From Alphaproteobacteria bacterium (GTDB lineage Bacteria > Pseudomonadota > Alphaproteobacteria > Bin95): a DNA stretch of 64,000 bases. The stretch spans positions 1,440,001 to 1,504,000 of the forward strand of contig CBDBGH010000003.1 of the NCBI GenBank assembly GCA_965205265.1. The letters are read 5' to 3'. The notes beneath the pieces were generated by a model. The model ran no database searches, was not told where the DNA came from, and was given only the letters and a program-made list of their open reading frames with translations. Shown in pieces: positions 9,933 to 27,261 of the stretch; the stretch's first letter is position 1, and every line of letters begins with the position of its first letter. The position numbers and the translations under genes are program-made.

Positions 9933-11059
9933 GCCGCGGGGTCGAAGCCGAAGATCATGGCGCGCATCCGCTCGAAGATACGGCCGAAAAAGCCGACCCG
10001 CTCGACATCCGTTCCCGCGTAAAGCGGATGCTCCACCGGCTGGATGCCGGGCGCCTCCAGACGCAGAACTGCGAGCTGCTGGCCCTCCTTCACGGGAGCA
10101 ACGACCGGCCCCGTCCATCTGACGGACGCCTTCAGGCCCGAGCGCGCCTGGCGCTTCAGCGAAAGCACCACATCGCTGCCCGGAACCAGCGGCACACGGT
10201 CCACGCTGCCGAGCCACACGGCCGCCTTCTCGACGGTCTCTCCCCTTTTCAGGAGGGGATAGGCTGCGAACTCGCGGAAGCCCCATTCGATCAGCCGTTC
10301 CGACTCCCGCGCGCGCGGCCGGGAGTTCTTCAGCCCGTTCAACACGAGGTAGAGCCGTCTCCCGTCGCGCTCGGCGGAGGCGGTCAGGCCGTAACCCGAT
10401 GCGTTGGTATGGCCGGTCTTGAGGCCATCGGCGCCCGGAACGCGCCCCAACAGGGGATTGCGGTTGCGCTGCTTGATCTTGTTGAACTCGAACTCGCGCT
10501 CCGCAAACATCCCGTAATATTCGGGAAACCCGGTCACGAGAATCTGTGCAAGACGGGCAAGGTCCCGCGGCGAAATCTCATGTTGCGGATGCGGCCAGCC
10601 GGTCGCATTCGTGAAATTCGCGCTGGCAAGGCCCAGTTCCCGCGCGCGCGCCGTCATCGCTTCGGCGAAGGCTTCCTCGCTGCCGGAAATCCCCTCGGCA
10701 ATGACGATGGAGGCATCGTTGCCCGACTGCACGATGACGCCGCGCAGCAGGTCGGCGACCGACACGCGCCTGTTGACGCGCACGAAGGTCTTGGAGCCGC
10801 CCATCTTCCACGCCTTGTGGCTGACCGGGAAGGTCTGGTCCATCGAAAGCACGCCGGCTTTCAGCCGTTCGAAGACCATGAGCACGGTCATGAGCTTGCT
10901 CATCGACGCCGGCGGGAGCGGCGTGTCGGCGTCCTTTTCCAGCAGCACGGTCCCGGTCGTTCCGTCGATCAGTATCGCGTGCGGCGCAATGGTCGTATCG
11001 GCGCGGGCGGCCGGGGCCAGAAGCAGAGCGGCCAGAATAGCGAAGACACTCAATCGCAT
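9929..11059 (-). CDS. dacA: D-alanyl-D-alanine carboxypeptidase (PBP5/6, peptidase S11)
   Basis: PASMSK (SxxK), SGN, KTG motifs; signal peptide. Confidence 0.93.
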   Translation of the reverse strand: MRLSVFAILAALLLAPAARADTTIAPHAILIDGTTGTVLLEKDADTPLPPASMSKLMTVLMVFERLKAGVLSMDQTFPVSHKAWKMGGSKTFVRVNRRVSVADLLRGVIVQSGNDASIVIAEGISGSEEAFAEAMTARARELGLASANFTNATGWPHPQHEISPRDLARLAQILVTGFPEYYGMFAEREFEFNKIKQRNRNPLLGRVPGADGLKTGHTNASGYGLTASAERDGRRLYLVLNGLKNSRPRARESERLIEWGFREFAAYPLLKRGETVEKAAVWLGSVDRVPLVPGSDVVLSLKRQARSGLKASVRWTGPVVAPVKEGQQLAVLRLEAPGIQPVEHPLYAGTDVERVGFFGRIFERMRAMIFGFDPAA

Positions 11060-11070
11060 GGGCGCGCCTC

Positions 11071-11931
11071 CTACCCTGTCGAGCGGACTACGAAGGCATC
11101 CCGCGGCCCGCGCGCCTTCACGCGGGCCTGCAGGGCGTCGGCCGACTGCCTGGTGTTTTCCGGCCCGATGCGGACGCGGTGCAGGACCCTGCCGTTTTTC
11201 GCCGTGCTCGTGTGAACCCGCACGCTGTCGAAGTGCCGCCTCAACCTGTTCGCCATGATCTCGGCATTCCTGCGGTCGCGAAACGTGCCAGCCTGCACAT
11301 AATACACGCCGGTCCTGGGGCTGCCGCCCCCGACGAAATCGGCCACGAGGCGGTCCTGCTGCCGGGCCCCGCCGCCGGCCTTCGCAATTCGGGCGACCTT
11401 GCGGCTCAGCTCGGGCAGCAGTTCGACCCGCACCCCGGTGACGCCCTTGCGGCGAAAACCGATCTTCTCGGCCGCTGCGAGCGACAGGTCGATGATCCGC
11501 TCGCGCGCATAGGGGCCGCGGTCGTTGATACGCACGACCACGCTTCGTCCATTGCTGAGATTGGTGACGCGCACGACGCTCGGCATCGGCAGCACGCGAT
11601 GCGCCGCCGTCATCGCGTACATGTTGAAGACTTCGCCATTAGCCGTCTGGCGGCTGTGGAATTTCCTTCCGTACCAGGACGCCATGCCGGTTTCGGAAAA
11701 GGTCTCGTATTCCTTCGGGCGATACCAGCGTTCGGCAATCTTGTAAGGCTCGCCGACCTTGTAGCTGCTGACATTGTAGGTCAGCGGGCGGTATGGCGAG
11801 GCCGAGACGCCGAGGCGCCTGTCCACGACCTTTCCGCCCCGCTCTCCCGTCTTCGCCGTCCGCTTAAACGTGTCGGGCGAACTGCAGGCGCAAACGGCGA
11901 ACGCCAGCAGCAGCGCAAGGACGCGGTTCAT
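11071..11931 (-). CDS. rlpA: Septal ring lytic transglycosylase RlpA
   Basis: Lipobox, ASWYG, TAAHR.LP, INDRGP, RIIDLS, C-terminal SPOR domain. Confidence 0.95.
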   Translation of the reverse strand: MNRVLALLLAFAVCACSSPDTFKRTAKTGERGGKVVDRRLGVSASPYRPLTYNVSSYKVGEPYKIAERWYRPKEYETFSETGMASWYGRKFHSRQTANGEVFNMYAMTAAHRVLPMPSVVRVTNLSNGRSVVVRINDRGPYARERIIDLSLAAAEKIGFRRKGVTGVRVELLPELSRKVARIAKAGGGARQQDRLVADFVGGGSPRTGVYYVQAGTFRDRRNAEIMANRLRRHFDSVRVHTSTAKNGRVLHRVRIGPENTRQSADALQARVKARGPRDAFVVRSTG

Positions 11932-12941
11932 CGGCACCCTCCGACGGCATCCGACAACAGCCCCACCGTCAACGCATAGAGATTGGAACAATTGTAGCGC
12001 AGCAGGCTTTCGTAGTTGCGATAGACGAGAAAGGCCTTGCCGTCGGCGTTGTCCGGCAGGAGCAGCCTGGCGTCGAGCGTGACGGCCGGCAACGCGGCGC
12101 CGGACAGGCGGCGCAGGCCCGCCGTCTGCCACGCCGCGAGGCTCTGCGCTTTTGTCGCCCGCCGGAGCGCGCGGCATCCCTTCGCCTTCCCGGCCACCAT
12201 CGAATCGTAAGCCTGCCTCACTGTCTTCGGCACCCGCACCCCGCGCCCCCATGTGCGTGCATCCGACCAGCCGTGCCGGTGGAGATAGTTGGCAATTGAG
12301 GCGAAAACATCGCCGAGATTATTCCAGATGTCCCGTCGGCCGTCGCCGTCGAAATCTTGCGCGAATGCAAGGTAGCTGGACGGGATGAACTGGGGATGGC
12401 CCATCGCGCCCGCCCAGGAGCCCTTCATGTCGGCCAGCTCGATATAGCCCTTGTCCACCATGCGCAGCGCATCCAGCAGTTGCGCGCGGAAGAAACGGGA
12501 CCGCCGCCGGTCGAACGCCAGCGTCGCGAGCGCCGGCACCACTTCCGTGCTGCCCCTGATGGCGCCGTAGCGGGTTTCGATGCCCCAGATTGCGACAATG
12601 AAGCGCGGTTGCACGCCGTAGCGCGCGGACACCCGCCGCAGCAGCCCGGCATGTTCCGCCATCATCGCCCTGCCCCGTTCGATATTGACGGGCTTGAGGA
12701 GGCGGTTGCTGTAGGTCTCGAAGGTCAACTTGAACTCCGGCTGCCTGCGGTCCCGGTTCAGGACCTTCTCCAGCGGCCTGAGCCCGGTGAGCGCAGCGTC
12801 CAGCGTGGCCGGCGAAATGCCCATGCCCGCGGCCTCGGCGCGAAATTCCGTCAGCCACCTGCCGAAATCGTCCGCCTGCCCGTCCCCGCCGGCGCAGCAG
12901 ACCCCGGCCAGCACCGCAAGCGCGACAGCGCCTCGCCGCAT
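11928..12941 (-). CDS. mltB: Lytic murein transglycosylase (MltB family)
   Basis: AIWGIETRYG, GSWAGAMGHPQFIPSS, DFDGDG, LRYN.S. Confidence 0.92.
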   Translation of the reverse strand: MRRGAVALAVLAGVCCAGGDGQADDFGRWLTEFRAEAAGMGISPATLDAALTGLRPLEKVLNRDRRQPEFKLTFETYSNRLLKPVNIERGRAMMAEHAGLLRRVSARYGVQPRFIVAIWGIETRYGAIRGSTEVVPALATLAFDRRRSRFFRAQLLDALRMVDKGYIELADMKGSWAGAMGHPQFIPSSYLAFAQDFDGDGRRDIWNNLGDVFASIANYLHRHGWSDARTWGRGVRVPKTVRQAYDSMVAGKAKGCRALRRATKAQSLAAWQTAGLRRLSGAALPAVTLDARLLLPDNADGKAFLVYRNYESLLRYNCSNLYALTVGLLSDAVGGCR

Positions 12942-13963: not shown

Positions 13964-15625
13964 ATGTCATCCCCTTCCAATACGATCAGCGGCCGCAGCG
14001 CCTTCCTTGCCGTGCTCAAGGACGAAGGCGTCACGCATCTCTTCGGCAATCCGGGCACGACGGAGTTACCGATCATGCACGCGCTGACGGAGCAGACCGA
14101 CCTCGGCTATGTGCTGGGACTGCAGGAGTCGGTGGTCGTCGCCATGGCCGACGGCTATGCGCGCGCGTCCGGCAAGCTGGCGGCCTGCAACGTTCATGTC
14201 GCGCCGGGATTGGGGAACGCCATCGGCGCGCTCTACACCGCCTCGCAAAGCGGCTCGCCGATCATCGTGACCGCCGGCCAGCAGGAGCAGGGCCACGGGC
14301 TGACGGAACCGCTCCTCTATGCCCCGCTCACCCCGATTGCCGAGCCGGTGGTCAAATGGGCGGTGGAAGTCTCCAGAATCGAGGATCTGCCCCGCATCTT
14401 GCGCCGCGCCGCCAAGGTTGCGACGACCCCGCCGACGGGGCCGGTGTTCATCTCCCTGCCCGGAGACATCCTGAACCGCCACGAGGCCATTGATCTCGGC
14501 CGGGCCACCCGGGTCGACGCCCGCGCCCGCCCTTCGGACGAGGCGCTGGCGGCGATGGCCGACCGGATCGCCGCCGCTGCAAATCCGGTCATCCTCGCCG
14601 GCCATGAGACGGCCACCGGCGGCGCGCTCGATGCCGCCGCCCGGTTCGCCGCATTGCTGGGCGCGCCCGTTTACCAGCAAAGCGTGCCCCAGGGCGCGCA
14701 TTTTCCCTCGGAGCATCCCTGCTTCATGGGGGCGCTCACGCGCAGTCAGCCGCAGGTTCGCCGGACGCTGGCGCCCTACGACCTGATCGTCAGCCTCGGA
14801 GCCGACTTCCTGCGCATGTCGGTCTGGAGTGAAACGGACCCGCTGCCCGGGCATATGTCGGTCATCCAGATCGGCCTTCGGGACTGGGAACTCGCCAAGA
14901 ACTATCCCGCCGAGATCGCCGCGCTGAGCGATGTAAGGGAGACCCTTGCCGCCCTGAATCCGCTGCTGGAGGACAGGCTGGGCGCCAGCCGGCAGCAGCG
15001 TGTCGCCGCGCTTGCCGAGAGCAATTGGACCGCGAACCGGCGCAACGCGGCGGACGCCCTGGCGGAGGTACCGGAAGAGTCCGGGCCCATCCCGCCGGCC
15101 TGGCTCTGCAGGTGCCTGGCCGAGGAACTGCCCGAAGACGGCATCGTCGTCGATGAGGGCATCACCACCGGCGCGCGCCTTCTGGACTTCCTGCCGTTCC
15201 GGGATGCGAACGGGTATTTCGGCAATGTCTCGGGCGGCATCGGATGGGGCATTGCGGCGGCGGTCGGCGTGCAGATCGCGCAGCCCGCGCGGCGCACGGT
15301 GGCGCTTATCGGCGACGGCAGCGCCATGTATTCGATCCAGGCGCTCTGGACCGCCGTCAATGCCCGGCTGCCGGTCGTTTTCGTCATCGCCAACAATGGC
15401 GGCTACCGCATTCTGAAGGACAGGATGAAGGCGTTTCACGACAATGACGCGCCGATAGGAATGGATTTTCGCGATCCGCCCATCGATGCGACACGACTTG
15501 CGGAAGGCTTCGGCATGGCCGCCTTGCGGGCCGAAACGCCGGCCGCCTTCCGCAAGGCATACCGGGATGCGCTCGCAGGCTCGGGGCCCGTCCTGATCGA
15601 GGCGATGGTCAGCGCCGGCGGGTGA
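13964..15625 (+). CDS. ThDP-dependent enzyme, benzoylformate decarboxylase-like
   Basis: FGNPGTTELP, LQE..V.MADGYA, GDGS...NN ThDP motif. Confidence 0.9.
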   Translation: MSSPSNTISGRSAFLAVLKDEGVTHLFGNPGTTELPIMHALTEQTDLGYVLGLQESVVVAMADGYARASGKLAACNVHVAPGLGNAIGALYTASQSGSPIIVTAGQQEQGHGLTEPLLYAPLTPIAEPVVKWAVEVSRIEDLPRILRRAAKVATTPPTGPVFISLPGDILNRHEAIDLGRATRVDARARPSDEALAAMADRIAAAANPVILAGHETATGGALDAAARFAALLGAPVYQQSVPQGAHFPSEHPCFMGALTRSQPQVRRTLAPYDLIVSLGADFLRMSVWSETDPLPGHMSVIQIGLRDWELAKNYPAEIAALSDVRETLAALNPLLEDRLGASRQQRVAALAESNWTANRRNAADALAEVPEESGPIPPAWLCRCLAEELPEDGIVVDEGITTGARLLDFLPFRDANGYFGNVSGGIGWGIAAAVGVQIAQPARRTVALIGDGSAMYSIQALWTAVNARLPVVFVIANNGGYRILKDRMKAFHDNDAPIGMDFRDPPIDATRLAEGFGMAALRAETPAAFRKAYRDALAGSGPVLIEAMVSAGG

Positions 15626-17639
15626 ACACGCCGACGGCCAGCAGCAGGGCCAGCAGCAGCGTCGTGGCCGCTATGCCGTAGCCGAGCAGCCGGCCCGCAT
15701 GCTGCAGCCCGGCGAAAGCGACGATGCTGCCGGCAAGCAGGGGGCCGGCAATGCTGCCGGCGCGCTCCACCACCCGGAAGGCCGCCGTGACCGGGCCGGT
15801 GCCGAAGGCTTCGGTTTCGGACCTGAAATAAATCGGCAGCACGGCCACTTGCGGCGTCATCACGAAGGACTGGCCGAGCCCGATCAGCGCGACGCCGCAA
15901 GCCAGCAGCAAGGCGTCGGTCGTGGAAACGAACAGCAGGCAGCCCGCCGCCACCGAAATCCCGCCAACGACGATCAGCATGCCGTGGTTCTGGAACCTGT
16001 CGGCTATCAGCGCCGCCGCCTGGTTCATGACCAGCAACACCAGGAAATAGACCATCATGGTGCGCCCGATGGCCGCCCCGCCGAAATCGAGCGAATCCAG
16101 ATAGAGCGGCACGAGGAAGAACAGGAAGCCGGTGAGCACGGTCCGCGACGGCAGGGCCGAGAGCGCCATGAATGTCATGAATCCCGGACTGCCGTAAATT
16201 CCGAACCGCCTACGATGGGCCTGTGCGCCCGCTCTGGTCCCGACTCCTTCCTCCGACGACAGGAAGCCGAAGGCGATCATCATGGCCACGAAGACGATGG
16301 TTGCCCCGACGATAAAGGTGTTCTCGTATCCCAGCCGTTCGGCGAGGATGCCGCCGATTGCGGTCGCGCAGATGCTGCCGCCGCCCGTGGCCGTGACGAA
16401 CACGCCGATATTGAGCGCGCGCCGGCGTTCCGGCGCCGTTATGGCAAGCCGGACCAGAATTGCAGCGGTGACGAGGCCGAAGCCCGCCGCCGTTACGCAA
16501 CGCCACGCAATGAGTTCGACGAACCCGGTCGCGAATGCCGTCGCGATGAGGCCGACGCTCGTGGGCGCCATGCCGAGCAACAGCGTGTTGCGCGTGCCGA
16601 GGCGGCGGATCAGCGTCGGCGCAAGCGGTGTCGTGAACAGCATTGCGACCACCCAGACCGACATCGGCATGGCGATCGCGATCGAGGCGTCGATGCCGAG
16701 CGAGGGATCGTAGAGGTCGCGCACGAAGAGGGGGAAGAAGGGACGAGAGAGTTCGACGCCGAAAATGAAGAAGAACAGTGGATACTGCACGTCTCCGGCG
16801 CGCAGCACCTGCACCGGCCGGTAGGCGCCCTCCTCGGCGAATACCCGCCCTTCCCGAAGCCTTTCGACGGCGCCGCCGGCGGTCACCAATGCGCGGAAAC
16901 GCCGGTTGATCTCGGTATTGATGCTATTCATGGCGTCGATGACCCGGGCTAGGTCGTCGCGTCCGCGCGAGGCGATGGAGGCCGAGAAGTCCCCTTCGCT
17001 GACCGCATGCATCAACCGCCTCATCAGGCCGATGGACCGGGCGACCGTAAGCGACAGCACCAGCAGGGTGAGTTCGAGAACGATCAGGATGGCGACGCAC
17101 AGCGAGATGCCGATATCGGTGAAGATGCCGGCCATGGTGTTGCGGACGTAACGCCGGTCTATTCCGACCATTGCGTGCCCGACCTGTTCGCCGCCATGAA
17201 GCAGGGGATGCGCGATATTGTAGTCGGAGCCGATCGAAACGAATGCGCCGGCATTCGCGGCAAAGGGATTGGAACTGGTATCGACTCCCTCGCCGGCCTC
17301 CGCCGAGAACAGCACCTTGCCCTCGGCATCGGTCACGGCGAGATAGGCAACCTCGGGGTGGTCGGTCAGCAAGTCGTCCAGATAGGCGTCCACACCCCTC
17401 AGGCCTTCGACCGGGATATCGAGGCGTACTGCCGTGTTGAGATCGTTGGCAATCGACCGGGCCAGGACATGCGCTTTGCCCTTGATGACGGGCTCCAGCC
17501 TCGTCTCCACCGCGCCGAGCGCAATCCAGGCAAGGAACGCATTTGCGGCAACGAGGGCCAGCACGGCGACGAAACCGATGCGGATGCCGATGCCCGCAAG
17601 GGTCGGAGCCCGTCGGTGGCCGCCGCGGTCGGGGCTCAC
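15609..17639 (-). CDS. MFS transporter with N-terminal periplasmic sensor-like domain and HAMP domain
   Basis: TM, ~140-aa periplasmic domain, TM, HAMP (VSEGDFS...RDDLARV..AMN), then about 12 hydrophobic helices with IRRLG.R, LAERLG and IADRF MFS loops. Confidence 0.82.
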   Translation of the reverse strand: MSPDRGGHRRAPTLAGIGIRIGFVAVLALVAANAFLAWIALGAVETRLEPVIKGKAHVLARSIANDLNTAVRLDIPVEGLRGVDAYLDDLLTDHPEVAYLAVTDAEGKVLFSAEAGEGVDTSSNPFAANAGAFVSIGSDYNIAHPLLHGGEQVGHAMVGIDRRYVRNTMAGIFTDIGISLCVAILIVLELTLLVLSLTVARSIGLMRRLMHAVSEGDFSASIASRGRDDLARVIDAMNSINTEINRRFRALVTAGGAVERLREGRVFAEEGAYRPVQVLRAGDVQYPLFFFIFGVELSRPFFPLFVRDLYDPSLGIDASIAIAMPMSVWVVAMLFTTPLAPTLIRRLGTRNTLLLGMAPTSVGLIATAFATGFVELIAWRCVTAAGFGLVTAAILVRLAITAPERRRALNIGVFVTATGGGSICATAIGGILAERLGYENTFIVGATIVFVAMMIAFGFLSSEEGVGTRAGAQAHRRRFGIYGSPGFMTFMALSALPSRTVLTGFLFFLVPLYLDSLDFGGAAIGRTMMVYFLVLLVMNQAAALIADRFQNHGMLIVVGGISVAAGCLLFVSTTDALLLACGVALIGLGQSFVMTPQVAVLPIYFRSETEAFGTGPVTAAFRVVERAGSIAGPLLAGSIVAFAGLQHAGRLLGYGIAATTLLLALLLAVGVFTRRR

Positions 17640-18388
17640 CTCGCATTCCTTTCAGCGGCCGCGAGCGTCGCCGCCGTTTCGCGCACGGAGGCGCTGTAGC
17701 CGACGAATTCGGCGAGGTCGGTGTCCGCCGGCGTTTCACCCGATTCCGGCTTCAGAAGGCTTTCAACGCTTCGACGCAGATAACGGGCGGTTCTGGTCAG
17801 TTTCCATAGGGCAGCCGCAGTTCCCAGCACCGCCAGCAGCCCGCTGGCAAAAAAGATGAGAGCCGCAGCCTCCACAAGCTCCGTCGTCAGTCCTTCGACG
17901 ATGCCGTTGAAACGCGCCTTGCTGTAGCGAACCGCGACCCCGCCTTCGAGCTTGCCGAAATTGTTGATGACGGGCGCGCCGACCACGAAGGATTCCGGGT
18001 CCTCGATGCGCCAGACATCCCCCGCCGCCTCCCGGTTGCCTGCGTTCCAGGCCCGGGGCGCCTGCGACCCTCCGCCATTCAACTCGTCGCCGCCATGTAC
18101 GAGCAGCCTGCCTCCCGCATCGAAAATGCTGACGGACTGAAATTCCGGATATTCGGCGACCAGCGCCTCCACCATGGTCCGGCTTTCGGCGATGTCCTTG
18201 AGAGGCAGGCCGAGGTCCACGGCCTGCCGCAGCCGGCGGGAGGTGTCGAGTGTGACGACCGAGACACGCGAATCGTCGAGCCCGCGCAGGATATCGGCGA
18301 ATTTCTGCTGGTTGAGCAGGATCATCAGCGCCATCGTCACGGCAAAGGCGCAAAGAAAGGCGGCGTTCAGGACAACCAGCAACCTCAT
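17636..18388 (-). CDS. Membrane protein with periplasmic Cache-like domain and no output domain
   Basis: Two TM helices flanking AVDLGLPL...YPEF.SVSIFDAGG...GAPVINNFGKLEGGV; paralog of 24416..25153; start and stop overlap both neighbours. Confidence 0.75.
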   Translation of the reverse strand: MRLLVVLNAAFLCAFAVTMALMILLNQQKFADILRGLDDSRVSVVTLDTSRRLRQAVDLGLPLKDIAESRTMVEALVAEYPEFQSVSIFDAGGRLLVHGGDELNGGGSQAPRAWNAGNREAAGDVWRIEDPESFVVGAPVINNFGKLEGGVAVRYSKARFNGIVEGLTTELVEAAALIFFASGLLAVLGTAAALWKLTRTARYLRRSVESLLKPESGETPADTDLAEFVGYSASVRETAATLAAAERNAR

Positions 18389-19395
18389 GCCGCCAGCATC
18401 CCCTGGCGCTGCATGCTGTAGCAGAGGAAATGCTCGATCATGGCCGCATGCGACACGCCCGCGGCGCCCGCACCGATATTCATCGACATGACGGTCGCCA
18501 GGTTGCAGGTGACATTGAACTCGAGCAGGCGGAAGGACCGGTCCGGCGCGACCCGGAAATCGACCCTGAGATAGTCGCAGGGCTGCACCAGCTTCGCGAA
18601 CGCAACCGCTGCTTCCCGGAGCTCCTCGCAAAGCATGGCGTCGTCGAAAGGTTCGCCCCGCTTCCCGGGCTCCAGAAAGCGCTTTTGCCCTTCGGTCTGC
18701 ACACCTTCGCGCAACTCGGAATGATTGGCGACGGGATGAAGCGCAAGAGGTCCGCCCAGCACCGGCACGGTCACGTCGAGGCCGGGTGCCAGGGATTCGA
18801 TCAGCGCCTCCTCGCCGGCGGCCAGCAAGGTCGATGCCCGCGAGCGCGCCTCTTCCCAGTCATCGCAGATCGATCCTTCATCGATGCCTTCCGAGTTGGC
18901 GCCGAAGCGGGGCTTGACGAAATAGGGCCCGTCGAAGCCGGGCGGCTCGTCAAGATCGGCCTCTGCGACCGCCGCGACTCCTTCGGGCACCGGCAGGCCC
19001 GCAGCCCGGGCCATCAGCTTGGCGATCCACTTGTCCTCGGCCATGGCGCGCACATTGGGCGGGCTGCCGAGATAGGGAACGCCCGTGCGCGCACAAAGCG
19101 AAGACACCAGTATTTCGGGGTTGCGGACAGGCTCCCGGTTGTAGATCTGGAAGATGTAATCGGGAGCCGGCCCGCGGCGCATACGTTCTTCGAAAGCTTC
19201 GAGGCTGGCGCAGGGCTCCACCGAGCGCGCCAGGCCCCGCAGTACTGAGAGCACCTCGAATTTGGTGTAGAGTTCGCGCCCGTATTGCGGATGGACCGTG
19301 GGTGGCGGTTCGGTCCAGTCCTCCGCATATTTGGCGAGAAACAGGATATCCAGCTCCTGACGGCGGTCCGGGCCGATTCGTAACAACTTTAGCAT
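18385..19395 (-). CDS. ATP-grasp ligase, D-Ala-D-Ala ligase-like (non-canonical)
   Basis: YLGS...EDKWIAK...GLPVP, FVKPRFGANSEG, LIE, RVDFR, LEFN. Confidence 0.85.
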   Translation of the reverse strand: MLKLLRIGPDRRQELDILFLAKYAEDWTEPPPTVHPQYGRELYTKFEVLSVLRGLARSVEPCASLEAFEERMRRGPAPDYIFQIYNREPVRNPEILVSSLCARTGVPYLGSPPNVRAMAEDKWIAKLMARAAGLPVPEGVAAVAEADLDEPPGFDGPYFVKPRFGANSEGIDEGSICDDWEEARSRASTLLAAGEEALIESLAPGLDVTVPVLGGPLALHPVANHSELREGVQTEGQKRFLEPGKRGEPFDDAMLCEELREAAVAFAKLVQPCDYLRVDFRVAPDRSFRLLEFNVTCNLATVMSMNIGAGAAGVSHAAMIEHFLCYSMQRQGMLAA

Positions 19396-19486
19396 TTCAA
19401 ATTGGCCGGATGTGTCGAAATTGCACGGAACAAGCGTATGATAGCCGTCAACCCTTCCACCGGCAACGCAGCGGACCCAGCCTCCC

Positions 19487-20500
19487 ATGTTACGAGTGCT
19501 ATTGCTGGCGCTCGCCATCTCGACCGTGGCGGCCCCGGCTTCCCAAGCCGATCCCTTCACTATCTATATGATCGTGCATCGCGCCGGGTCGGGCGCGGAT
19601 GACGGTTTTCGCGATTACCTGACGGCGAACGGCGTCGATGCGAACTTCGTCTTCCGCGACATGGAGAACGACCGGTCCCGCCTCCCGGGATATGTCGAGG
19701 AAATCAAGGCGCTCAAGCCCGACCTCGTCTATACCCAGACGACTTCGGTGACGCGCGCCATCGTCGGGCGGCTCGAAGAGGCCGATCCGCAGAAGCATGT
19801 GCTCGACATTCCCGTCGTGTTTTCGATGGTTTCGTTTCCAGCCAGATCGAAACTTGTGCCCCAGCCTCCCGGTCCGGCGGCGCCGATGCTCTCGAAGCGC
19901 AACATTACCGGGGCAAGGCACGTCGTCTCGAACCTCGTGCGTCTCAATGCGATGCGCACCTACATGCCCTTCGAGAAGCTCGGCATGCTCTATGACAAGA
20001 GCTCGGGCGCGCAGCGCCGCACCGAGACCGCAATGCGGACCCTCGTGGAAGACGCCGGCATCGAATTCGTGTCCGACAGCCCGACGGAACCCGAGGCCGA
20101 ACGGGACCCGGCCCAGATAGAGCCGACGCTGCGGCGCCTCAAACAGGCGGGAGTCGACTTCCTCTATATCCCGCCGTCCAACTTCTTCGGCACCCATGCC
20201 GAACTCGTGACCCGCACGGCAACGGAACTCGGCCTGCCGACCTTCTGCGGCGTGGAGACGCTGATCCGGCAACACTGCATGACGGGGCTCGTCAGCCCGC
20301 TCTACGCGGTCGGGCAATTCGCCGCCTTCAAGGCCGAGCAGATACTGACCGGCGGCAAGGACCCGGGCGAAATCCCCATCGAAACGCTCTCCCGGTTCTC
20401 CTTCGTGGTCAACATGGAGACGGCGCACAAGCTGAAAGTCTATCCGCCGATGGAAATCCTGCGCTTCGCGCAGTTCATCAAGACCGGAGCCGATTCTTGA
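19487..20500 (+). CDS. Periplasmic substrate-binding protein (ABC_sub_bind type)
   Basis: Signal peptide, KPDLVY, IPVVFS, NITG, KAEQIL.GG..P.EIPIE, VVNM.TA.KL. Confidence 0.85.
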   Translation: MLRVLLLALAISTVAAPASQADPFTIYMIVHRAGSGADDGFRDYLTANGVDANFVFRDMENDRSRLPGYVEEIKALKPDLVYTQTTSVTRAIVGRLEEADPQKHVLDIPVVFSMVSFPARSKLVPQPPGPAAPMLSKRNITGARHVVSNLVRLNAMRTYMPFEKLGMLYDKSSGAQRRTETAMRTLVEDAGIEFVSDSPTEPEAERDPAQIEPTLRRLKQAGVDFLYIPPSNFFGTHAELVTRTATELGLPTFCGVETLIRQHCMTGLVSPLYAVGQFAAFKAEQILTGGKDPGEIPIETLSRFSFVVNMETAHKLKVYPPMEILRFAQFIKTGADS

Positions 20501-21525
20501 TCGCCCTGAAACGTCTGGACGACAAACGCCGCGCCGCGCTCAAAATCCTGTATCTGGTGCCCCATGCGCCTTCGCCCGACACACCCAGGCCTCCGGACAT
20601 TCATCCGGATTACGGCGTGCAGCCCGCCTACCAGTACGAAATCTGGGATGTGCTGCGGAACGGTCTCGGCCTGGATGTCGACAGCAGTTCCGATCTCGGC
20701 GTCGTGCCCCAGGCCTTCGAAGGCCGGAATTACGTTTTCTCGCTCTACAACATTGCGCCGTTCCGAAATTCGGAAATTTACGTCTCCGCCCTGGCCGCGA
20801 AAGCCGGTATCGCCTGCCTGGGCGCCCCCCCGAACATTCGCGCGCTCGCTGAGGACAAGTGGCTAAGCAAGCTGGCGGCGCGGGCGCTCGGCCTGCCGGC
20901 GCCGGACGGGAAAGTGTTCGCAGGAAACGGTCCCGTGCGGAAGCCGGACTTCGACGGGCCCTATATCGCCAAGCCGCGGTTCGGCGCCGCATCGACGGGA
21001 ATCGACGCTTCGAGCGCGCAAGAGGAATTCGGCGCTCTCGAAGCGCGGGTCGCGGCTCTCGGGGCAACAATCGACGAGTGCCTTGTCGAGCATGTCTTCG
21101 GTGACTTCGATGTGACGGTGCCGATACTGGTGGGCGAGGACGGGCCGGTGGCCCTGCCCCCTGCCACCCAGACCTGCGACAGCCCGTACGGGTTGTTTAC
21201 CCACCGCCAGAAACGAAAGCTGGAACCCGGCCTCACACGCGAGTTCCCCGGCGATGAGCCCTGGCTCAAGCCCATTGTCGAAGATGCCCTGCGGTTCGCG
21301 AGGGCGGTGGAGCCGTACGACTATCTGCGCTGCGACTTCCGCTTCGGCGCCGCGGGGCACGCCTTCCTCGAATTCAATCTCGCCTGCTCGATCGGCGGCG
21401 CTATGGCCTTCGCGCAAAGCGCGGCGCGTGCAGGCATTTCCTCGGAGGCCCTGGTCGAGCACATTCTTGCTACAAGCCTCGACCGGCAGTGGGGTCAGGA
21501 CGCTTCCGGACCGCCGCCCAGATAG
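20497..21525 (+). CDS. ATP-grasp ligase, D-Ala-D-Ala ligase-like (non-canonical), paralog of 18385..19395
   Basis: LGAPPNIRALAEDKWLSK, YIAKPRFGAASTG, RCDFR, LEFN; TTG start overlaps the SBP stop. Confidence 0.85.
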   Translation: MIALKRLDDKRRAALKILYLVPHAPSPDTPRPPDIHPDYGVQPAYQYEIWDVLRNGLGLDVDSSSDLGVVPQAFEGRNYVFSLYNIAPFRNSEIYVSALAAKAGIACLGAPPNIRALAEDKWLSKLAARALGLPAPDGKVFAGNGPVRKPDFDGPYIAKPRFGAASTGIDASSAQEEFGALEARVAALGATIDECLVEHVFGDFDVTVPILVGEDGPVALPPATQTCDSPYGLFTHRQKRKLEPGLTREFPGDEPWLKPIVEDALRFARAVEPYDYLRCDFRFGAAGHAFLEFNLACSIGGAMAFAQSAARAGISSEALVEHILATSLDRQWGQDASGPPPR

Positions 21526-24419
21526 CGCACCGCCACCGTGGTGATGTCGTCGCTCTGCTCGACTCCCGTCGAGAATTCCTCGACCGACGCGCGCATCGCA
21601 TCGCAGATGACAGCCGGCGAGGCGTCCGCATGGGCCGCCAGTTCCGCTTCCAGGCGCGGCTCGCCGAATTGTTCGCCTGCTTCGTTGAAGGCCTCGTTCA
21701 CACCGTCTGTGTAAAGGAACAGCGTTTCGCCCGGCGTCAGCGTGGTCTCTCCCTCCTCGAAATCGAACCCCGGCATGATGGCAAGCGCCAGGCCGGGACT
21801 CATCGGCAGGGTCGATAGCCGCCCCCCGCCGTCGATCCGGTAAGTCGGGTTGTGTCCGGCATTGGCGAAGGTCACATGGCCGGTTTCGGTATTCACGACC
21901 GCATAGAAGGCGGTCACGAACATCATCTGCTCGTTCTCGGCTTCCAGCATGTCGTTCAACGCGGTCAACACCCGGCCCGGCGATTCGCCGATCAGAGCGG
22001 TGGCCTTGAGCAGGGTGCGCGCAATCAGCATGAAGAAGGCAGCCGGGATGCCCTTGCCCGAGACATCCGCGATAACGAGCCCGATGCGTTGCTCGTCGAT
22101 GGCGAAGTAGTCGTAGAAGTCGCCGCCGACCTCCTTGGCCGGAAGCATCTGCGCCGCGATCTCGACGGTGCGCTGCGGCGGCGTCTCGCGCGGCAGCACC
22201 GAGAGCTGCAGGTCGTGCGCGATGGACAGCTCGCGCTCGATCGCGACCAGGCGCTCCTTGTGCTTGAGCGCCTCGCGCAGTTCTTCAATCAACTCCGTCA
22301 GGCGTCCATGCTGTTCGCGGATGCGTTGCGCCATCTGTTCGAAAACGAGTGTGAGAGCCTCGAACTCGTCGCTGGCGCCTTCCCGTTCGAGCTCGGCGAG
22401 CTGGTCCGTAACGGCCTGGCGGGCTTCTGCGCCCACAGCCGAGGTCAGCCCGGCCATCTGCTGGCGCAGGAAACGTTCGCGCCGCCTTTGCGCCCGGCGG
22501 CGCTCGGCCGACAGGCGTTCGACCTCGCCCAGGGAACTTCGATACGCCTCGACCGCTCTGGCGATACGGGCAATTTCGTCCCTGCCGGCCTCCTGTTCGA
22601 GCCACACGCCGCGCCGGCCTTCGGAGAGCGCCTCCAGCACGCCTATCACCCGGTCGAGCGGTTGCAGGGAGCCGCTCAGATTCGCATAGAGCGCCCAAAG
22701 GGCAATGCAGGCGAAAACGGCCGCTGCTCCGAAAAAGGCAATACGCAGCGCCTGCTGCCGCGCGGCAAGCTCGCTGACATCGGCGACGACGTGCAGGCCG
22801 GCAAGACGCCCGCCGTTCAGGGCCGGGATGCTTGTTGTCGTCCTGGCATAGTCCGCGCTGTCCCGGTCCAGAGCTTGCCAGAGCAGCGGGTCGGTGCCGA
22901 AGATCAACCCGCCCTCGCTCCCGACCAGAAAGGCCTCTCCGCCGAGGACGGCCCCCGCCTCCTGAACCGCCGAGGCGAGCGGGAGGCTTGCGGCAACGAT
23001 CAACACATCGCCCCGTTCCGGGTCTCCCAGCAATTCTGCAACCGTCCAGACCGGCTGCCCGTCAGCGTCGATGTCGCCGCCGCTTGCCCGCGTTCCGGTA
23101 TCGACAATTCGCTTGGCCACGCGAGACGACAGGGGATTGCGGCCGACGAACAGGCGTCCACCGGCTCCTTCCGAGGGATCGAAGGTCACGAGCCGTTCGA
23201 TTCCGCTGCCGGTCGAAAGATCCTCGATCAGGCGCGCGGCGAGCAGTGTATCGCGAGCAAGAAGCGCGGACCGGATGTCTTCGTTGGCGCGCAAGGGGGC
23301 CAGCAGGCGCGCAACCGTATCCGTTTCGCGCTGCGACAGGGTCTTCCAGACGGTCTTCAACGCTGTCTGGCGGTCTTCGTTATAGCTTTCGGCAAGAAGG
23401 CGCTCACGCACGATGCTGCCATAGCCGAGGCCTACCGCCAGCAGAAGCCCCGCAAGGCTGATGATCGCCGTCAGCCGCAGGCGTATCGAGACATTCCGGC
23501 CGAAACGGCCGACCGCGGTGGGCGGCGTCGGGGGAATATCGCGAAAGGCCGGCTCCAATCTCTGGACCAGCCCCCGGCGGATGCGTTCGAGCGAATCGCG
23601 CACCGTCCGGCCGACTGCGGCATCGCGCGCGTCCTCCGCGTGATCCAGGGTTTCGTCATATCGCGTGCGGAGGCCGTGCAGCACCGCATTGAATGCGCGG
23701 GCTGCATAGCCGATTTCGTCCCGCTGCCCCAGATCCGCGAGCAGCACCGGGTGGCCGCCGGCCGCTTGCGCAATTCCGTCGTCGAGCCGCTGCAGGCGCC
23801 GGCCGACGCGCAATGTCAGAACGAGCGCACACAGCAACCCGACAACGAGGCCGACAGCGCCCGCAATGGCGAAACCCGGCCAATTGCGGCGCAGCAGATG
23901 CGTCACGAAGTCCTTTTCGACCGCGACATGCAAGAGGGCCAATGGATAGTCTGCCGGGCCGATCGGACGGATATCGACAGAGAGGTCGCCGAAGGTATGG
24001 CGGCTCCGGGCCTCCGTCATCCCTCCCGCCAGGCGCCGCTCCTCGAATCTGGTGTCCGCCGACTCAAGCAGGTTTTCCAGCCGGCTGCGCGCGATGCCGC
24101 TGAAATAGACGGGTTCCTTGTCCGGCCTCGTCATCGCGATGAAGCGTATGTCCGGATTGTCGTCGAGGAAGCGCTGGAAGAACGGCTCTACGCCCCGGAG
24201 CTCCTCGAGCGGAATGCCGACCCGGGCGGCGCGCTCCATCTCGACCTTCATGGCCTGGCCGACCGCGAGCGCCTTGCGGTCGAGCTCGCCCGCCAGCGGT
24301 TCCTCGGCCCACCAGTGGAATGCTGCGGTCGTCAGCACCGCCTGCAACAGCGCAACGACGACGGCGGCAATGCAGGCCTTCAGGCAGATCGCTCGCGAGA
24401 TCCGGCCCATGCCCGTCAT
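21495..24419 (-). CDS. Membrane PP2C/SpoIIE (RsbU-like) phosphatase with two sensor-HAMP modules
   Basis: EVGGDFYD, ADVSGKG, NAGH, YTDGV, SDDIT; four TM segments, two HAMP-like regions (RDEIG, RDEIA). Confidence 0.9.
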   Translation of the reverse strand: MTGMGRISRAICLKACIAAVVVALLQAVLTTAAFHWWAEEPLAGELDRKALAVGQAMKVEMERAARVGIPLEELRGVEPFFQRFLDDNPDIRFIAMTRPDKEPVYFSGIARSRLENLLESADTRFEERRLAGGMTEARSRHTFGDLSVDIRPIGPADYPLALLHVAVEKDFVTHLLRRNWPGFAIAGAVGLVVGLLCALVLTLRVGRRLQRLDDGIAQAAGGHPVLLADLGQRDEIGYAARAFNAVLHGLRTRYDETLDHAEDARDAAVGRTVRDSLERIRRGLVQRLEPAFRDIPPTPPTAVGRFGRNVSIRLRLTAIISLAGLLLAVGLGYGSIVRERLLAESYNEDRQTALKTVWKTLSQRETDTVARLLAPLRANEDIRSALLARDTLLAARLIEDLSTGSGIERLVTFDPSEGAGGRLFVGRNPLSSRVAKRIVDTGTRASGGDIDADGQPVWTVAELLGDPERGDVLIVAASLPLASAVQEAGAVLGGEAFLVGSEGGLIFGTDPLLWQALDRDSADYARTTTSIPALNGGRLAGLHVVADVSELAARQQALRIAFFGAAAVFACIALWALYANLSGSLQPLDRVIGVLEALSEGRRGVWLEQEAGRDEIARIARAVEAYRSSLGEVERLSAERRRAQRRRERFLRQQMAGLTSAVGAEARQAVTDQLAELEREGASDEFEALTLVFEQMAQRIREQHGRLTELIEELREALKHKERLVAIERELSIAHDLQLSVLPRETPPQRTVEIAAQMLPAKEVGGDFYDYFAIDEQRIGLVIADVSGKGIPAAFFMLIARTLLKATALIGESPGRVLTALNDMLEAENEQMMFVTAFYAVVNTETGHVTFANAGHNPTYRIDGGGRLSTLPMSPGLALAIMPGFDFEEGETTLTPGETLFLYTDGVNEAFNEAGEQFGEPRLEAELAAHADASPAVICDAMRASVEEFSTGVEQSDDITTVAVRYLGGGPEAS

Positions 24420-25153
24420 CCGATCCGGTCCAGCCGATCGACCTCGCGGGCATCGTCGTCCATCGCGGCAAGCATTCTCGCCGCAGTATCGTGGAAGCCC
24501 GCAAGCGACGGCGGCGCACCCTCCAGGTCCGCTGCCTGGCCCTCCGCCATCGCCAGCAACGAGGCGTCGCTTCGCCTCAGCATGTCGAGAACCGGATGCA
24601 GCACCCAGCGGGCAAACAGGAAAACAAGCAGGAGGCAGACCGCGAACACGCCGGCGGCAATGCCGAAGACGGTAACGGCCGCGCGTTCGCGCAGCGGCGC
24701 ACTGTGCCGGACTTCGCTCTCCAGCAGGACACCGCCGACGACCTTGCCGAAATTATTGATAAGCGGGCTCCCGACGGTCACCGCCCGCTCATCGGTCTCG
24801 ATCCAGCGCCCGGTTCGGTCGCCGGCATCGACCGTGGTCCCGAGGTCCGTCTGGTCGGTGGAGAATACGACCCGGCCGTCCGGCCCGAAAACCAGCAGCC
24901 GGTCGATATCCGGGTCGGCCGCCTGGGTGCGGTCCAGCAATGCCGCGATTTCCGGGATGGTCTCGAGTCGAAGGCCCAAATCCGTGCGGACCGTAATCGC
25001 ATGGGCGATTTCATCGACGGTGAAGCCGAAATGCGACGCCTTAACAGTTCGGAGTTCGCGGTCGAATGTGTCGAGTGCGGCATACACGACCAGCGCGAGA
25101 GAAAGGGCAACGCCGGCCAGGAACGCCAATCCCAACTTGATCCGCAGTCTCAT
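24416..25153 (-). CDS. Membrane protein with periplasmic Cache-like domain and no output domain
   Basis: Two TM helices; TDLGLRL...DPDI..LLVFGPDG...GSPLINNFGKVVGGV; coupled to the PP2C gene. Confidence 0.75.
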   Translation of the reverse strand: MRLRIKLGLAFLAGVALSLALVVYAALDTFDRELRTVKASHFGFTVDEIAHAITVRTDLGLRLETIPEIAALLDRTQAADPDIDRLLVFGPDGRVVFSTDQTDLGTTVDAGDRTGRWIETDERAVTVGSPLINNFGKVVGGVLLESEVRHSAPLRERAAVTVFGIAAGVFAVCLLLVFLFARWVLHPVLDMLRRSDASLLAMAEGQAADLEGAPPSLAGFHDTAARMLAAMDDDAREVDRLDRIG

Positions 25154-25296
25154 GCTTACCGGCCAATCCCGCCCTTCGCGTTGCCGCAATCATAGCGCCC
25201 AATCGTTTCCGCGCCAGCGTTGCCTCTTTGCTTCTCAGGGCAATCGCTTTTGGATTTGTCATATGCGAACACCCCCGTCATGCCCGAACGCCCCCT

Positions 25297-25386
25297 CCGT
25301 CATACCCGGACTTGTTCCGGGTATCCATGCGGCCGTCCGGCGGAAGCGGTGGAAGGAGATACCCGGAACAAGTCCGGGTATGACGG
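25297..25386. repeat. CGTC-type REP doublet (perfect 29-bp inverted repeat, each arm internally palindromic)
   Basis: CCGTCATACCCGGACTTGTTCCGGGTATC (25297-25325) and its exact reverse complement (25358-25386). Confidence 0.85.
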
Positions 25387-25674
25387 GAAGGGGATATGAC
25401 CGGAAGAGCGTCGGGGCTTCGATTCGACCGCCCCCCTCGAAACCCGGCTGAATCCCGGCCATGCGCCCTGCTCGCAAATCTTCAAAAGCGATTGCCCTGT
25501 TTGCTTCTTCGCCCTGGTTTCGTCCCGATGCAACGGAAACAACGCAGCGTCCCGGAAGAAGAGAACCGGAGGAAGAACCAGCGCCTGCAAGCAAACGAAC
25601 TCACCGAAAGGGCACCAATTTACAGCCGGGTCGACCTCGGGCGGCAAGCCTTGAAGACCGGTTGGGCCCCGCCG

Positions 25675-27261
25675 TCAGGAGGCCGGCGCCATCGGCTCCG
25701 CCTCGGCATCCCAGCAAGCGCCGATTCCCCGCTCGCGCAACTCGTGACGCGCGATTTCGTTCTTGGTCATCGTGCGGGGGAACTCCTCCACGAATTCGAC
25801 GTAGCGCGGCGCCTTGAAATAGGCGATGCGCTCGCGGCACCATGCCACCAGCGCGCCCGGCTCGACCGGCGCGGAAACCTGCACATAGGCCTTGATGTCC
25901 TCCTCTCCGAGATCGGAGGGCACGCCCACGCAGGCGCAGTCGATGACCGCGTCATGGGCCGTCATCGCCTTCTCCACCTCGAAGGCCGACACATTCTCGC
26001 CCCGACGCCGGATCCAGTGCGCCTCGCGCCCGACGAAATGGACATAGCCGTCCTCGTCGAGCCAGCCGAGGTCGCCGGAGTGGTACCAGAGGTTGCGCCA
26101 GGCGGCGAGGGTCGCCTGCGGCTTGTTGATGTATTCCATCATGCAGGTGTTCGGCACGCTGGGCCGCAGCAGCAAGTGGCCCGTCTCGCCGGCGGGCAGC
26201 GGGTTGTCGTCGGCATCGGCGACCATGATCTCGGCCCAGCCGTGCGGCCGGCCGCAGGTGCCGGCCTTGCGGTCGTGCAGGCGCTCGGAGCAGAGCAGCA
26301 CGCCCATTTCCGTCATCGCATAGACCTCCAGCATCGGGATGCCGAACCGGGCCTCGAACTCGTCGCGGAGCTCGCGCCGCACCTGGCCGGACGCGATCCC
26401 CACCCCGACCTTTACCCGGTGCGAGCGGTCGAGCCCGCTTTCCGGCCGGCGGAGCAGCACGGACATCATCGTGCCCAACGGGTCGACGATCGTGGCGCCG
26501 TGGCGATGCACCGTCTCCCAGTAGCGCGAGGCGCTGAACCATTTGTGCATCACGCCGGTCATGCCGGTGTAGAGCGGACCGGTGACGCCGAATTGCTGGC
26601 CGCCGATATGGAAGAAATGCGAGTTCGCGAAATGCACGTCGTCGGGGCCGGCCTCGGCGATCTCCGCATAGCGAACGGCCGCGCCGATGTAATAGAGGTG
26701 CGAGACGAGCACGCCCTTGGGCATGGATGTGCTGCCGCCGGTATAGACGATGGCCGCCGGGTCGGTCGGCCGCACCTCCGCCTGGGGAAGCGCCTCCGAA
26801 CTCGTCAGCAATTCCTCCCAGGCGCCGTATCCCGCGCGCGGCGCGCCGTGGACGAGCACCTTCGGGGGAGACGAAAACCGGTCCGCCGCCGCTTCGCAGA
26901 CATCCATCAGCTCGTCGTCCGCGACCAGCAGTTTCGCGCCGGTGTCGTTCAGGCTGTAAGCAAGATCGTCCCGGGCGAGCGACACGTTGAGGGCCGCATA
27001 GACCGCGCCGATCTTGGCGCAGGCGAACCAGACGATCTCCTGCGCAAGCGAGTTGTACATGAAGGTCGCGACGACATCGCCCTTGCCTATCCCGCGTTCG
27101 AGAAGCGCGTTGGCGGCGCGGTTCGACAGCCGGTCGGCATCGGCGTAGGTCAGGGTCTCGTCCCGGCAGATGAGTAGCGGCTTGTCGCCGAGCCGGGCGC
27201 GCATCGTCACCAGGTCGCGGAGCGTGGTCGCGTGCGGCGTCTTGCCCATGATGCGGATCAT
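25675..27261 (-). CDS. Acyl-CoA ligase (CaiC-like AMP-binding enzyme)
   Basis: YTGGSTSMPKG, YAMTE, YHSGDLG, IRRRGENVS, PRTMTK. Confidence 0.9.
   Translation of the reverse strand: MIRIMGKTPHATTLRDLVTMRARLGDKPLLICRDETLTYADADRLSNRAANALLERGIGKGDVVATFMYNSLAQEIVWFACAKIGAVYAALNVSLARDDLAYSLNDTGAKLLVADDELMDVCEAAADRFSSPPKVLVHGAPRAGYGAWEELLTSSEALPQAEVRPTDPAAIVYTGGSTSMPKGVLVSHLYYIGAAVRYAEIAEAGPDDVHFANSHFFHIGGQQFGVTGPLYTGMTGVMHKWFSASRYWETVHRHGATIVDPLGTMMSVLLRRPESGLDRSHRVKVGVGIASGQVRRELRDEFEARFGIPMLEVYAMTEMGVLLCSERLHDRKAGTCGRPHGWAEIMVADADDNPLPAGETGHLLLRPSVPNTCMMEYINKPQATLAAWRNLWYHSGDLGWLDEDGYVHFVGREAHWIRRRGENVSAFEVEKAMTAHDAVIDCACVGVPSDLGEEDIKAYVQVSAPVEPGALVAWCRERIAYFKAPRYVEFVEEFPRTMTKNEIARHELRERGIGACWDAEAEPMAPAS

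Follow-up and report, generated by a model that had tools for sequence, protein, structure and literature searches.

A recurrent gene cluster predicted to encode a receptor-gated MFS transporter with a solute-binding protein and a parallel phosphatase branch

A 64,000-nucleotide stretch of DNA from Alphaproteobacteria bacterium (GTDB lineage Bacteria; Pseudomonadota; Alphaproteobacteria; Bin95; GenBank assembly GCA_965205265.1, contig CBDBGH010000003.1, positions 1,440,001 to 1,504,000 of the forward strand), hereafter the window, carries a cluster of seven genes at positions 15609-25153. They code for a solute-binding protein (SBP) of the PF04392 family, a fusion of a receptor, a HAMP domain and a major facilitator superfamily (MFS) permease, a double receptor with a SpoIIE-type PP2C phosphatase domain, two small receptors that we call stubs, and two ATP-grasp ligases. 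We read this cluster as a conserved membrane module of three parts that has been duplicated and extended. It would work as a heterodimeric MFS transporter that the SBP triggers and the HAMP gates, with a phosphatase branch running in parallel; we give this reading, in its whole and in its mechanism, about an even chance of being right. The conserved core appears to be the stub, the receptor-HAMP-MFS fusion and the SBP, with the PP2C receptor as a recurrent extension and the ligase as an accessory of one lineage, and this core was found in Alphaproteobacteria, Burkholderiales and Myxococcota. Functional statements throughout rest on sequence, structural models and synteny. The cluster is laid out as follows (aa, amino acids).

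15609-17639, minus strand: receptor-HAMP-MFS fusion, 676 aa
17636-18388, minus strand: stub receptor 1, 250 aa
18385-19395, minus strand: ATP-grasp ligase 1, 336 aa, with the ATG at 19395 taken as start
19396-19486, no strand: divergent intergenic region between ligase 1 and the SBP gene, 91 bp, with one promoter-like site per strand
19487-20500, plus strand: PF04392 SBP, 337 aa, with a signal-peptide-like N-terminus
20497-21525, plus strand: ATP-grasp ligase 2, 342 aa, with a TTG start overlapping the SBP stop codon
21495-24419, minus strand: double receptor-PP2C protein, 974 aa
24416-25153, minus strand: stub receptor 2, 245 aa

The gene models combine a listing of open reading frames (ORFs), the profile of third-position GC (GC3) and translation, in a host genome of 5.7 Mb with 66% GC. 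They bear out an earlier sequence-only reading of this DNA, which had described seven genes in three units with overlapping start and stop codons: four junctions overlap by 4 nucleotides (17636-17639, 18385-18388, 20497-20500 and 24416-24419, the last being an ATGA shared by stub 2 and the PP2C gene), and by its overlap ligase 2 is translationally coupled to the SBP gene. Domains were called with Pfam and NCBIfam (Pfam cut-offs in bits: MFS_1 33.4, HAMP 25, ABC_sub_bind 25.9, Dala_Dala_lig_C 24, dCache_1 45), transmembrane (TM) segments by hydropathy, and folds by searching AlphaFold2 (AF2) models with Foldseek. As the same reading had stated, Pfam found no ABC permease, ABC ATPase, kinase or transcription factor among the seven proteins, nor any ABC parts in the flanks. 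The cluster is internally paralogous: the two ligases are 41% identical, the two stubs 31% (E 2e-18), and the N-termini of the fusion and the PP2C protein 25% (E 1e-8).

The recurrence of this gene set, hereafter the cassette, was followed from three independent anchors. A profile of 24 ligase sequences gave 541 relatives in contigs of one genome per species, the best 80 of which yielded 73 loci that were probed by tblastn with the window proteins; a fusion-anchored survey of metagenomes yielded seven loci, with upstream DNA present in five; and a stub profile, applied to 400 evenly sampled Pseudomonadota genomes, matched in seven of these besides the window's own and yielded nine loci. In very GC-rich relatives, genes were called by a simple GC3 filter and checked by tblastn. 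With the ligase as anchor, the complete seven-gene layout was recovered in six loci of close relatives (L009-L014), and across the 73 loci the fusion was present in 16, the SBP in 15, the stub in 13 and the PP2C protein in 9; L018 and L020 have further 264-aa ORFs in the stub position, beyond these 13. Corallococcus, Cystobacter and metagenome-assembled genomes (MAGs) of Burkholderiales share the order stub, fusion, ligase, SBP, on one strand and with 4-nucleotide overlaps. Around the metagenomic fusions, a stub lies upstream in all five loci that have upstream DNA, and the SBP is present in four and the ligase in three of the seven; L086 consists of stub, fusion and SBP, L087 of stub and fusion only, and L088 of fusion and SBP, the ligase being absent though the DNA is there. 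The nine stub-anchored loci include the MFS fusion in seven cases, the PF04392 SBP in eight, the receptor-PP2C in four and the ligase in none. Two of them (L096, L097) read stub, fusion, SBP, stub, receptor-PP2C, all on one strand, and a third (L100) has a fused stub-receptor-MFS gene, then the SBP gene, then a STAS gene.

Fusion orthologues were present in L009-L027, L082-L088 and L093-L100, and in the surveyed loci the equivalents of stub 1 always lay directly upstream of the fusion. The fusion occurs in 13 of 16 other genomes of the window's own genus, in none of eight genomes of two sister genera and in one of 16 from other families of the class; a word-based search with its N-terminus gave 63 matches, nearly all from close relatives, and all but one were MFS-bearing or truncated. 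The recurrence of the full layout in L009-L014, and of the core in other phyla, places the arrangement far outside what chance would give, and a fortuitous adjacency of the genes was rejected as an explanation, the layout being conserved across phyla. The sequence-only reading had treated the genes as a functional unit that should co-occur in other genomes, and this view held up, with stub, fusion and SBP found together in all three surveys. Its further expectation, that ATP-grasp and sensor genes are linked elsewhere, held for one clade (17 of the 73 ligase-anchored loci) but not for the remaining 56, in which the ligase stands alone in other, unrelated contexts.

How the membrane parts may be assembled is suggested by the stubs. 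Stub 1 is composed of a TM segment, a Cache/PAS-like periplasmic domain, another TM segment and a 56-aa helix-loop-helix tail, without an output domain; hydropathy gives two TM segments in each stub, and no Pfam family scored above its cut-off on stub 1. In its AF2 model (pLDDT 79.5) the first TM helix extends into a long helix in the periplasm, followed by an alpha/beta core of PAS/Cache-like type, the other TM helix and the helix-loop-helix tail. The top Foldseek match was WalK, its TM and HAMP parts included (9a5d_A, TMq 0.66), and sensor-domain matches comprised WalK, KinD, YycG, CitA, DcuS and Tlp3 (E 4.5e-8 to 1e-3). When compared by hhalign with the N-terminus of the fusion (TM1 plus periplasmic domain), stub 1 gave a probability of 97% (E 5e-11), indicating that the two are paralogues. 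Stub 2 matches the stub profile A2 (E 5.8e-26), and in its 281-aa equivalent from L097 Pfam detects a HAMP at residues 199-238. Counted as cluster representatives, without genomic context, the stub family has 1,524 members at E <= 1e-3 and 139 at E <= 1e-30, nearly all of 240-290 aa. Among the best 150 stub relatives, 13 exceed 400 aa; two of these are tandem stubs, and seven (P0246, P0252, P0254, P0258, P0261, P0296 and P0300) combine the stub profile, the fusion-head profile and MFS_1 in one chain. That stub and long receptor would act as one unit is supported most strongly by these natural stub-receptor-MFS fusions, and we predict stub 1 to be the partner of the fusion and stub 2 that of the PP2C receptor.

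The fusion itself is built of TM1 (residues 23-41), a Cache/PAS-like domain (about 42-175), TM2 (176-194), HAMP (about 195-245), a linker and a 12-TM MFS domain (288-669), which scored 94.1 bits with MFS_1. Many of its orthologues have precomputed PF00672 (HAMP) matches. The AF2 model (pLDDT 74.1) shows an MFS part of 6+6 helices over residues 282-675, and its best Foldseek matches were VMAT1/2, NorA, MdfA, VAChT and YajR, with a probability of 1.00 to VMAT, NorA and MdfA. The periplasmic sensor domains scored below the dCache_1 threshold (16.7 and 18.5 bits), and the AF2 models of fusion and stub display the helix plus five strands of a Cache/PAS-like fold. Across phyla the MFS domain is more conserved than the receptor head. 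An alignment of 29 fusion proteins retains R380 and G386 in 28 each, G429 in all 29, G430 in 24, D547 in 25, R548 in 23, E625/R626 in 27 and an acidic residue at position 296 in 23, with T at position 426 in 20 proteins and P in 6; we take the TM4 arginine to be motif B, the glycine-rich part of TM5 to be motif C and the cytoplasmic loop to be motif A. Since these transporter motifs are kept across the 29 proteins, the MFS domain is likely a working permease and not an anchor. Public labels for the parts of the module are only generic ("MFS transporter", "hypothetical"), and protein atlas clusters are likewise called "MFS transporter".

The third core component, the SBP, scored 58.7 bits with ABC_sub_bind (PF04392) and has a hydrophobic N-terminal segment at residues 1-19. 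Neither the cluster nor its flanks contain a cognate ABC permease or ATPase gene, and no other PF04392 match occurs in the 5.7-Mb genome, which makes the SBP an orphan, as had been read from the sequence before. Its identity to the cassette SBPs of Myxococcota and Burkholderiales is 40-49%, 75 alignment columns being invariant, and it scored 70.6 bits with the TrpX equivalog model of NCBIfam, against a cut-off of 390. The solved PF04392 proteins, which according to Table 1 of PMC10443332 bind L-Trp, L-Tyr and L-Phe, are its remote relatives (E about 1e-4). In another locus (L101:8198-12231) a PF04392 SBP gene lies directly upstream of a gene for a sCache_3_2-HAMP-PAS-GAF-HisKA-HATPase-REC hybrid histidine kinase, a pairing that fits a putative co-receptor role of the SBP.

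The PP2C protein consists of TM1, a first periplasmic domain, TM2, a HAMP-like region, TM3, a second periplasmic domain of about 220 aa, TM4, HAMP (585-630), a coiled coil and a SpoIIE-type phosphatase domain (775-966). The latter scored 178.3 bits with SpoIIE (PF07228), covering profile positions 1-191 of 192, and its translation includes the motifs ADVSGKG, YTDG and SDDIT, whose Asp residues are presumably metal-binding; the SiaA model of NCBIfam gave 80.9 bits against a cut-off of 700. The sequence-only reading had proposed paired, related membrane receptors, one with a partner-switching PP2C domain, which agrees with our data, and an order sensor-HAMP-sensor-HAMP-PP2C, of which the four TM segments (by hydropathy) and the second HAMP (34.6 bits) were confirmed, but not the first HAMP, which has no Pfam match and was placed by alignment with the N-terminus of the fusion. 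The two halves of the protein are separate genes in L016/L017, L026, L096 and L097, and the counterpart of its N-terminal receptor module is still MFS-bearing in L016/L017 and a 512-aa protein in Zavarzinia. It is the only SpoIIE-family gene in the genome. In the window cluster Pfam found neither an anti-sigma kinase nor a STAS antagonist; elsewhere the genome has two small HATPase_c_2 (RsbW-like) genes and two stand-alone STAS genes, in scattered positions. In L016 an RsbW-like gene comes right after the PP2C gene, and in L100 a STAS gene adjoins, which supports the assignment of the predicted receptor-PP2C pair to partner switching. Both stand-alone STAS genes of the genome (G000:C3:529090-530081 and C3:5284035-5286390; L091 and L092) are followed by a GPP34-family gene, in L092 with an IS605 OrfB/Cas12f-like (TnpB-type) ORF in between.

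With Dala_Dala_lig_C, ligase 1 scored 25.8 bits and ligase 2 22.3 bits (cut-off 24), and with the NCBIfam Ddl models 50.6 bits (cut-off 243) and 39.5 bits (cut-off 245.65), so that neither is called as Ddl. A ligase profile aligned with the Ddl structure 3r23 in the PDB (E 4.9e-23, residues 37-333 against 14-302), and K122, K161, R277, D279, E292 and N294 are invariant in 24 ligase sequences, indicating that the ATP-grasp core is present. In Ddl the N-terminal region binds the first D-Ala; the ligases lack conservation of this Ddl-type region. Judging from these comparisons, the ligases are Ddl-like in fold and not Ddl. In a quick maximum-likelihood tree of 81 ligases (IQ-TREE), 25 cassette-linked rows fall on one side of one branch (one change, support 76), with ligase 2 in a separate sub-clade, and this cassette clade is separate from two others, one of Bacillota/Bacteroidota and one alphaproteobacterial (support 100).

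The genome encodes a third ligase paralogue (G000:C3:4939936-4940904; L008:7913-8992; 43% identity) among two TcpQ-domain ORFs and several ORFs without Pfam match; its neighbours are unrelated to the cassette, and it was rejected as a cassette member. The ligases of Bacillota, Bacteroidota and Melainabacteria (L034, L038, L042, L049 and L058, around position 10000) face a convergent gene for a 756-806-aa protein, with TPR matches in three of the five, and a tyrosine integrase gene lies immediately upstream in L034, L049 and L058; beyond the large protein, L038 and L042 have a RimK-like ATP-grasp gene. These five loci may represent a mobile island, perhaps a defence system. The alphaproteobacterial ligase clade (L028, L029, L045 and L056, around positions 8300-12200) adjoins a DUF2478-DUF4213-DUF364 protein, followed in three of the four (L029, L045 and L056) by an SBP_bac_6 ORF, a second and different pairing of a ligase with a binding protein.

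The genes on either side of the cluster encode a TPP enzyme and an AMP-binding ligase, and belong to unrelated metabolism. Promoter-like sites in the divergent region 19396-19486 (plus strand 19415-19442, minus strand 19466-19438) are a placement hint only, since the region-wide scan gave three sites against 1.4 +/- 1.0 in shuffles, which is not above chance; the same applies to terminator-like sites (12 against 8.0 +/- 2.6 expected). Rfam gave no match in 15000-26000 at E <= 0.1, and a tRNA scan of 25100-25750 found none. Pieces of the stretch are present in sponge and coral-reef metagenomes. Contigs from RNA libraries, belonging to close relatives (90-99% identical to the window), were found in three metatranscriptome libraries of two studies and cover all seven genes, whereas run X24 gave no contigs; they fill 30 of 30 bins of 15000-26000 in two runs and bridge the junctions stub 1/ligase 1, SBP/ligase 2 and stub 2/PP2C. 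Between stub receptor 2 and the AMP-binding gene, positions 25276-25395 hold a near-perfect palindrome of about 110 nucleotides (RNAfold -79.8 kcal/mol), which has 281 blastn matches in its own genome and looks like a REP/MITE-like interspersed repeat, and this repeat explains a 205-fold depth spike in the RNA-library contigs of run X19. Further away, a Terminase_2-like ORF (34965-35918), maybe a phage remnant, lies between a Uma2 endonuclease-like gene and the gene for the small subunit of ribonucleotide reductase (32318-36943). In the relatives, a Porin_O_P gene lies directly upstream of the core operon in Corallococcus (L024:5859-7154) and Cystobacter (L027:5816-7117), and in Burkholderiales MAGs (L018:3781-6426, L020:3933-6461) a divergent dCache-adenylate/guanylate cyclase-cNMP-binding gene stands beside it.

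In the mechanism that we propose, unit A would comprise stub receptor 1, the receptor-HAMP-MFS fusion and ligase 1. Stub and long receptor would pair by their homologous TM, Cache-like and HAMP parts, resulting in a two-chain head and HAMP bundle with a single MFS permease. The secreted PF04392 SBP, when loaded with ligand, would dock on the paired periplasmic Cache-like domains, and the HAMP, which runs directly into the first permease helix, would open or close transport. In unit B, formed by stub receptor 2 and the double receptor-PP2C, the paralogous receptor head would switch the SpoIIE-type phosphatase, and this would dephosphorylate STAS proteins encoded elsewhere, and hence affect whatever the RsbW-like kinases hold. 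One outside cue would in this way set both the transport step and the regulatory state of the cell. The two Ddl-like ligases, as clade-specific cytoplasmic accessories, would act on the cargo of the permease, either conjugating it once imported or producing it for export. As the probable direction we slightly prefer uptake to efflux, because SBPs usually function in uptake, the myxobacterial operon is preceded by a porin gene, the ligase is dispensable, and the layout parallels that of the tripartite ATP-independent periplasmic (TRAP) transporters and the tripartite tricarboxylate transporters (TTT); export as direction of transport is weakly supported.

Several observations weigh against this mechanism. 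The HAMP of the fusion, although it directly follows TM2, scored 22.7 bits and thus remains below the Pfam cut-off, as it does in L026 (24.3), L086 (24.3), L087 (23.0) and the second L016 fusion (23.1 bits); residues 210-280 are poorly modelled in the monomer (pLDDT 39-56), and hhalign leaves the tail of the stub unaligned with HAMP. The fold matches of the permease favour drug/amine:H+ antiporters, which suits export more than SBP-fed uptake, and its weak NCBIfam matches mix importers and exporters. Two loci break the pattern, L087 with stub and fusion but no SBP within 8 kb, and L095 with no SBP, and all synteny evidence is correlative. The RNA-library contigs, finally, may include DNA, so that presence in a library is no proof of transcription.

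The same parts can be arranged differently. The sequence-only reading had the ligases build a small peptide-like molecule that the MFS exports and the SBP captures, with receptors feeding back on exporter and phosphatase, which would make the cluster a closed autocrine loop whose signal serves a private quorum or homeostasis. In its favour, translation of the ligases is coupled to that of the stub and the SBP, the ATP-grasp catalytic residues are kept, the position of the cassette-linked ligases on one side of a tree branch (25 rows, support 76) suggests long co-inheritance, and the MFS resembles DHA1-type antiporters, with a motif-C-like G-[TP]-x-x-G-G. However, a ligase is found in none of the nine stub-anchored loci and is absent from L086, L087 and L088, which keep stub and fusion, mostly with SBP; because of these absences a ligase-product loop is not the general logic of the module, although it may operate in this ligase-bearing clade. 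Besides, 56 of 73 ligase-family loci lie in unrelated contexts, and no product or other biosynthetic gene is evident in the cluster; we regard such a loop as improbable. Alternatively, the MFS domain might itself be the substrate sensor, possibly non-productive, with its cycle reported through HAMP and head to the PP2C receptor, so that the module would be chiefly a sensor. Transporters are known as co-sensors in UhpC/UhpB, DctA/DcuS and BceAB/BceS, fusion and PP2C receptor share an operon in L016/L017, L082/L083, L096 and L097, and the PP2C receptor of the window carries a covalently attached head of the fusion type. Yet this PP2C protein has lost the MFS part and kept the receptor head, most loci have fusion and SBP but no PP2C, as in four of the seven fusion-bearing stub-anchored loci and in all myxobacterial and Burkholderiales loci, and the order periplasmic domain, HAMP, MFS is the input-to-output order of known HAMP proteins; in our view a sensing permease is unlikely.

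A tripartite SBP-dependent importer without real signalling, in which stub and head are a docking scaffold for the SBP, comparable to the small subunit of TRAP and TTT systems, the HAMP-like segment has the structural function of a linker and the solute taken up is metabolised by the ligase, would account for an SBP without ABC partner, for the Porin_O_P gene upstream in the Corallococcus and Cystobacter loci, and for the combination of an SBP, a small membrane protein and a 12-TM permease, the small and large parts being at times fused, in parallel to TRAP and TTT; the amino acid ligands of the solved PF04392 proteins (L-Trp, L-Tyr and L-Phe in the table of PMC10443332) would also suit it. 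Against a purely structural role, Pfam detects HAMP in several members (30.4 bits in P0261, which is above the cut-off). Moreover, the same head drives PP2C, and a related sCache-HAMP head drives a histidine kinase beside a PF04392 SBP (L101), which argues for genuine signalling; we give an importer of this kind little probability.

Set against known systems, the proposed SBP-triggered, HAMP-gated transporter resembles TRAP (DctPQM) and TTT (TctCBA) in that genes for an SBP, for a small membrane protein and for a secondary permease of 12 TM helices stand side by side, and that the small and the large membrane component are sometimes fused. The resemblance is in layout only, since here the components are a PF04392 protein, a Cache-HAMP stub and an MFS permease, with receptor-type periplasmic domains and HAMP, and Pfam found none of the DctP/DctQ/DctM or TctC/TctB/TctA families on the seven proteins. 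PP2C sensor phosphatases such as RsbU of Chlamydia and SiaA of Pseudomonas likewise combine a membrane receptor with periplasmic domain, a HAMP and a SpoIIE/PP2C domain, and 10.1101/2024.02.22.581593 describes the sensor phosphatase RsbU with the RsbW kinase and RsbV as a defined scheme. In contrast, the window protein has two tandem receptor modules and a separate stub, lies in an SBP/MFS cassette, and has its kinase and STAS genes outside the cluster. WalK (YycG) with YycH and YycI is comparable as a receptor with small membrane-anchored auxiliaries, and the TM/Cache/PAS/TM/HAMP part of WalK is the best fold match of the stub, but WalK is a histidine kinase whose partners are not paralogues of its own sensor head, and it involves neither a transporter nor an SBP. 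The SLC5/STAC histidine kinases (described in PMC9100948) unite a transporter fold with a signalling module in one protein or complex. They include CbrA, CrbS and RpuS, and UhpC/UhpB and BceAB/BceS are transporter-sensor pairs of the same idea. In all these systems the transporter domain is N-terminal and serves as input to a kinase, unlike the order receptor, HAMP, MFS seen here, with the transporter in the output position. The ligases share with Ddl and Van ligases a full-length ATP-grasp similarity and the R277, D279, E292 and N294 core, and differ in their scores below the cut-offs and their unconserved N-terminal region. No HAMP that feeds a transporter, no twin receptor without output and no such set of genes is known from TRAP/TTT, RsbU/SiaA, WalK or SLC5/STAC. 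A literature search, with most subscription journals outside its reach, gave no paper on a HAMP-MFS fusion and no account of this gene set. It is a tentative proposal, which we hold as somewhat less than evenly probable, that the cassette encodes a secondary transporter gated by a receptor, the first of its kind. In it, a Cache-HAMP receptor with a 12-TM MFS permease as output domain would form a heterodimer with its twin that lacks an output, and would be operated by an SBP. It would be a third, MFS-based kind of SBP-dependent transporter beside TRAP and TTT, hard-wired to a PP2C partner-switching branch, so that uptake or efflux would respond to the same external ligand as gene regulation.

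HAMP domains are known to signal to kinases, cyclases, chemotaxis arrays and phosphatases. A HAMP running straight into a transporter would, if true, be a new output class, and would allow the gating of an MFS permease by a two-helix signal to be studied directly. The pairing of stub and long receptor, backed by natural fusions, could solve the apparent mismatch between a dimeric signalling module and a permease predicted to act as a single copy, and the cluster may be a case of an orphan PF04392 binding protein acting outside ABC transport. The module is rare, yet it spans Alphaproteobacteria, Burkholderiales and Myxococcota, and its carriers include the cultured Corallococcus coralloides, Cystobacter fuscus and Zavarzinia sp., so that it is open to experimental testing.

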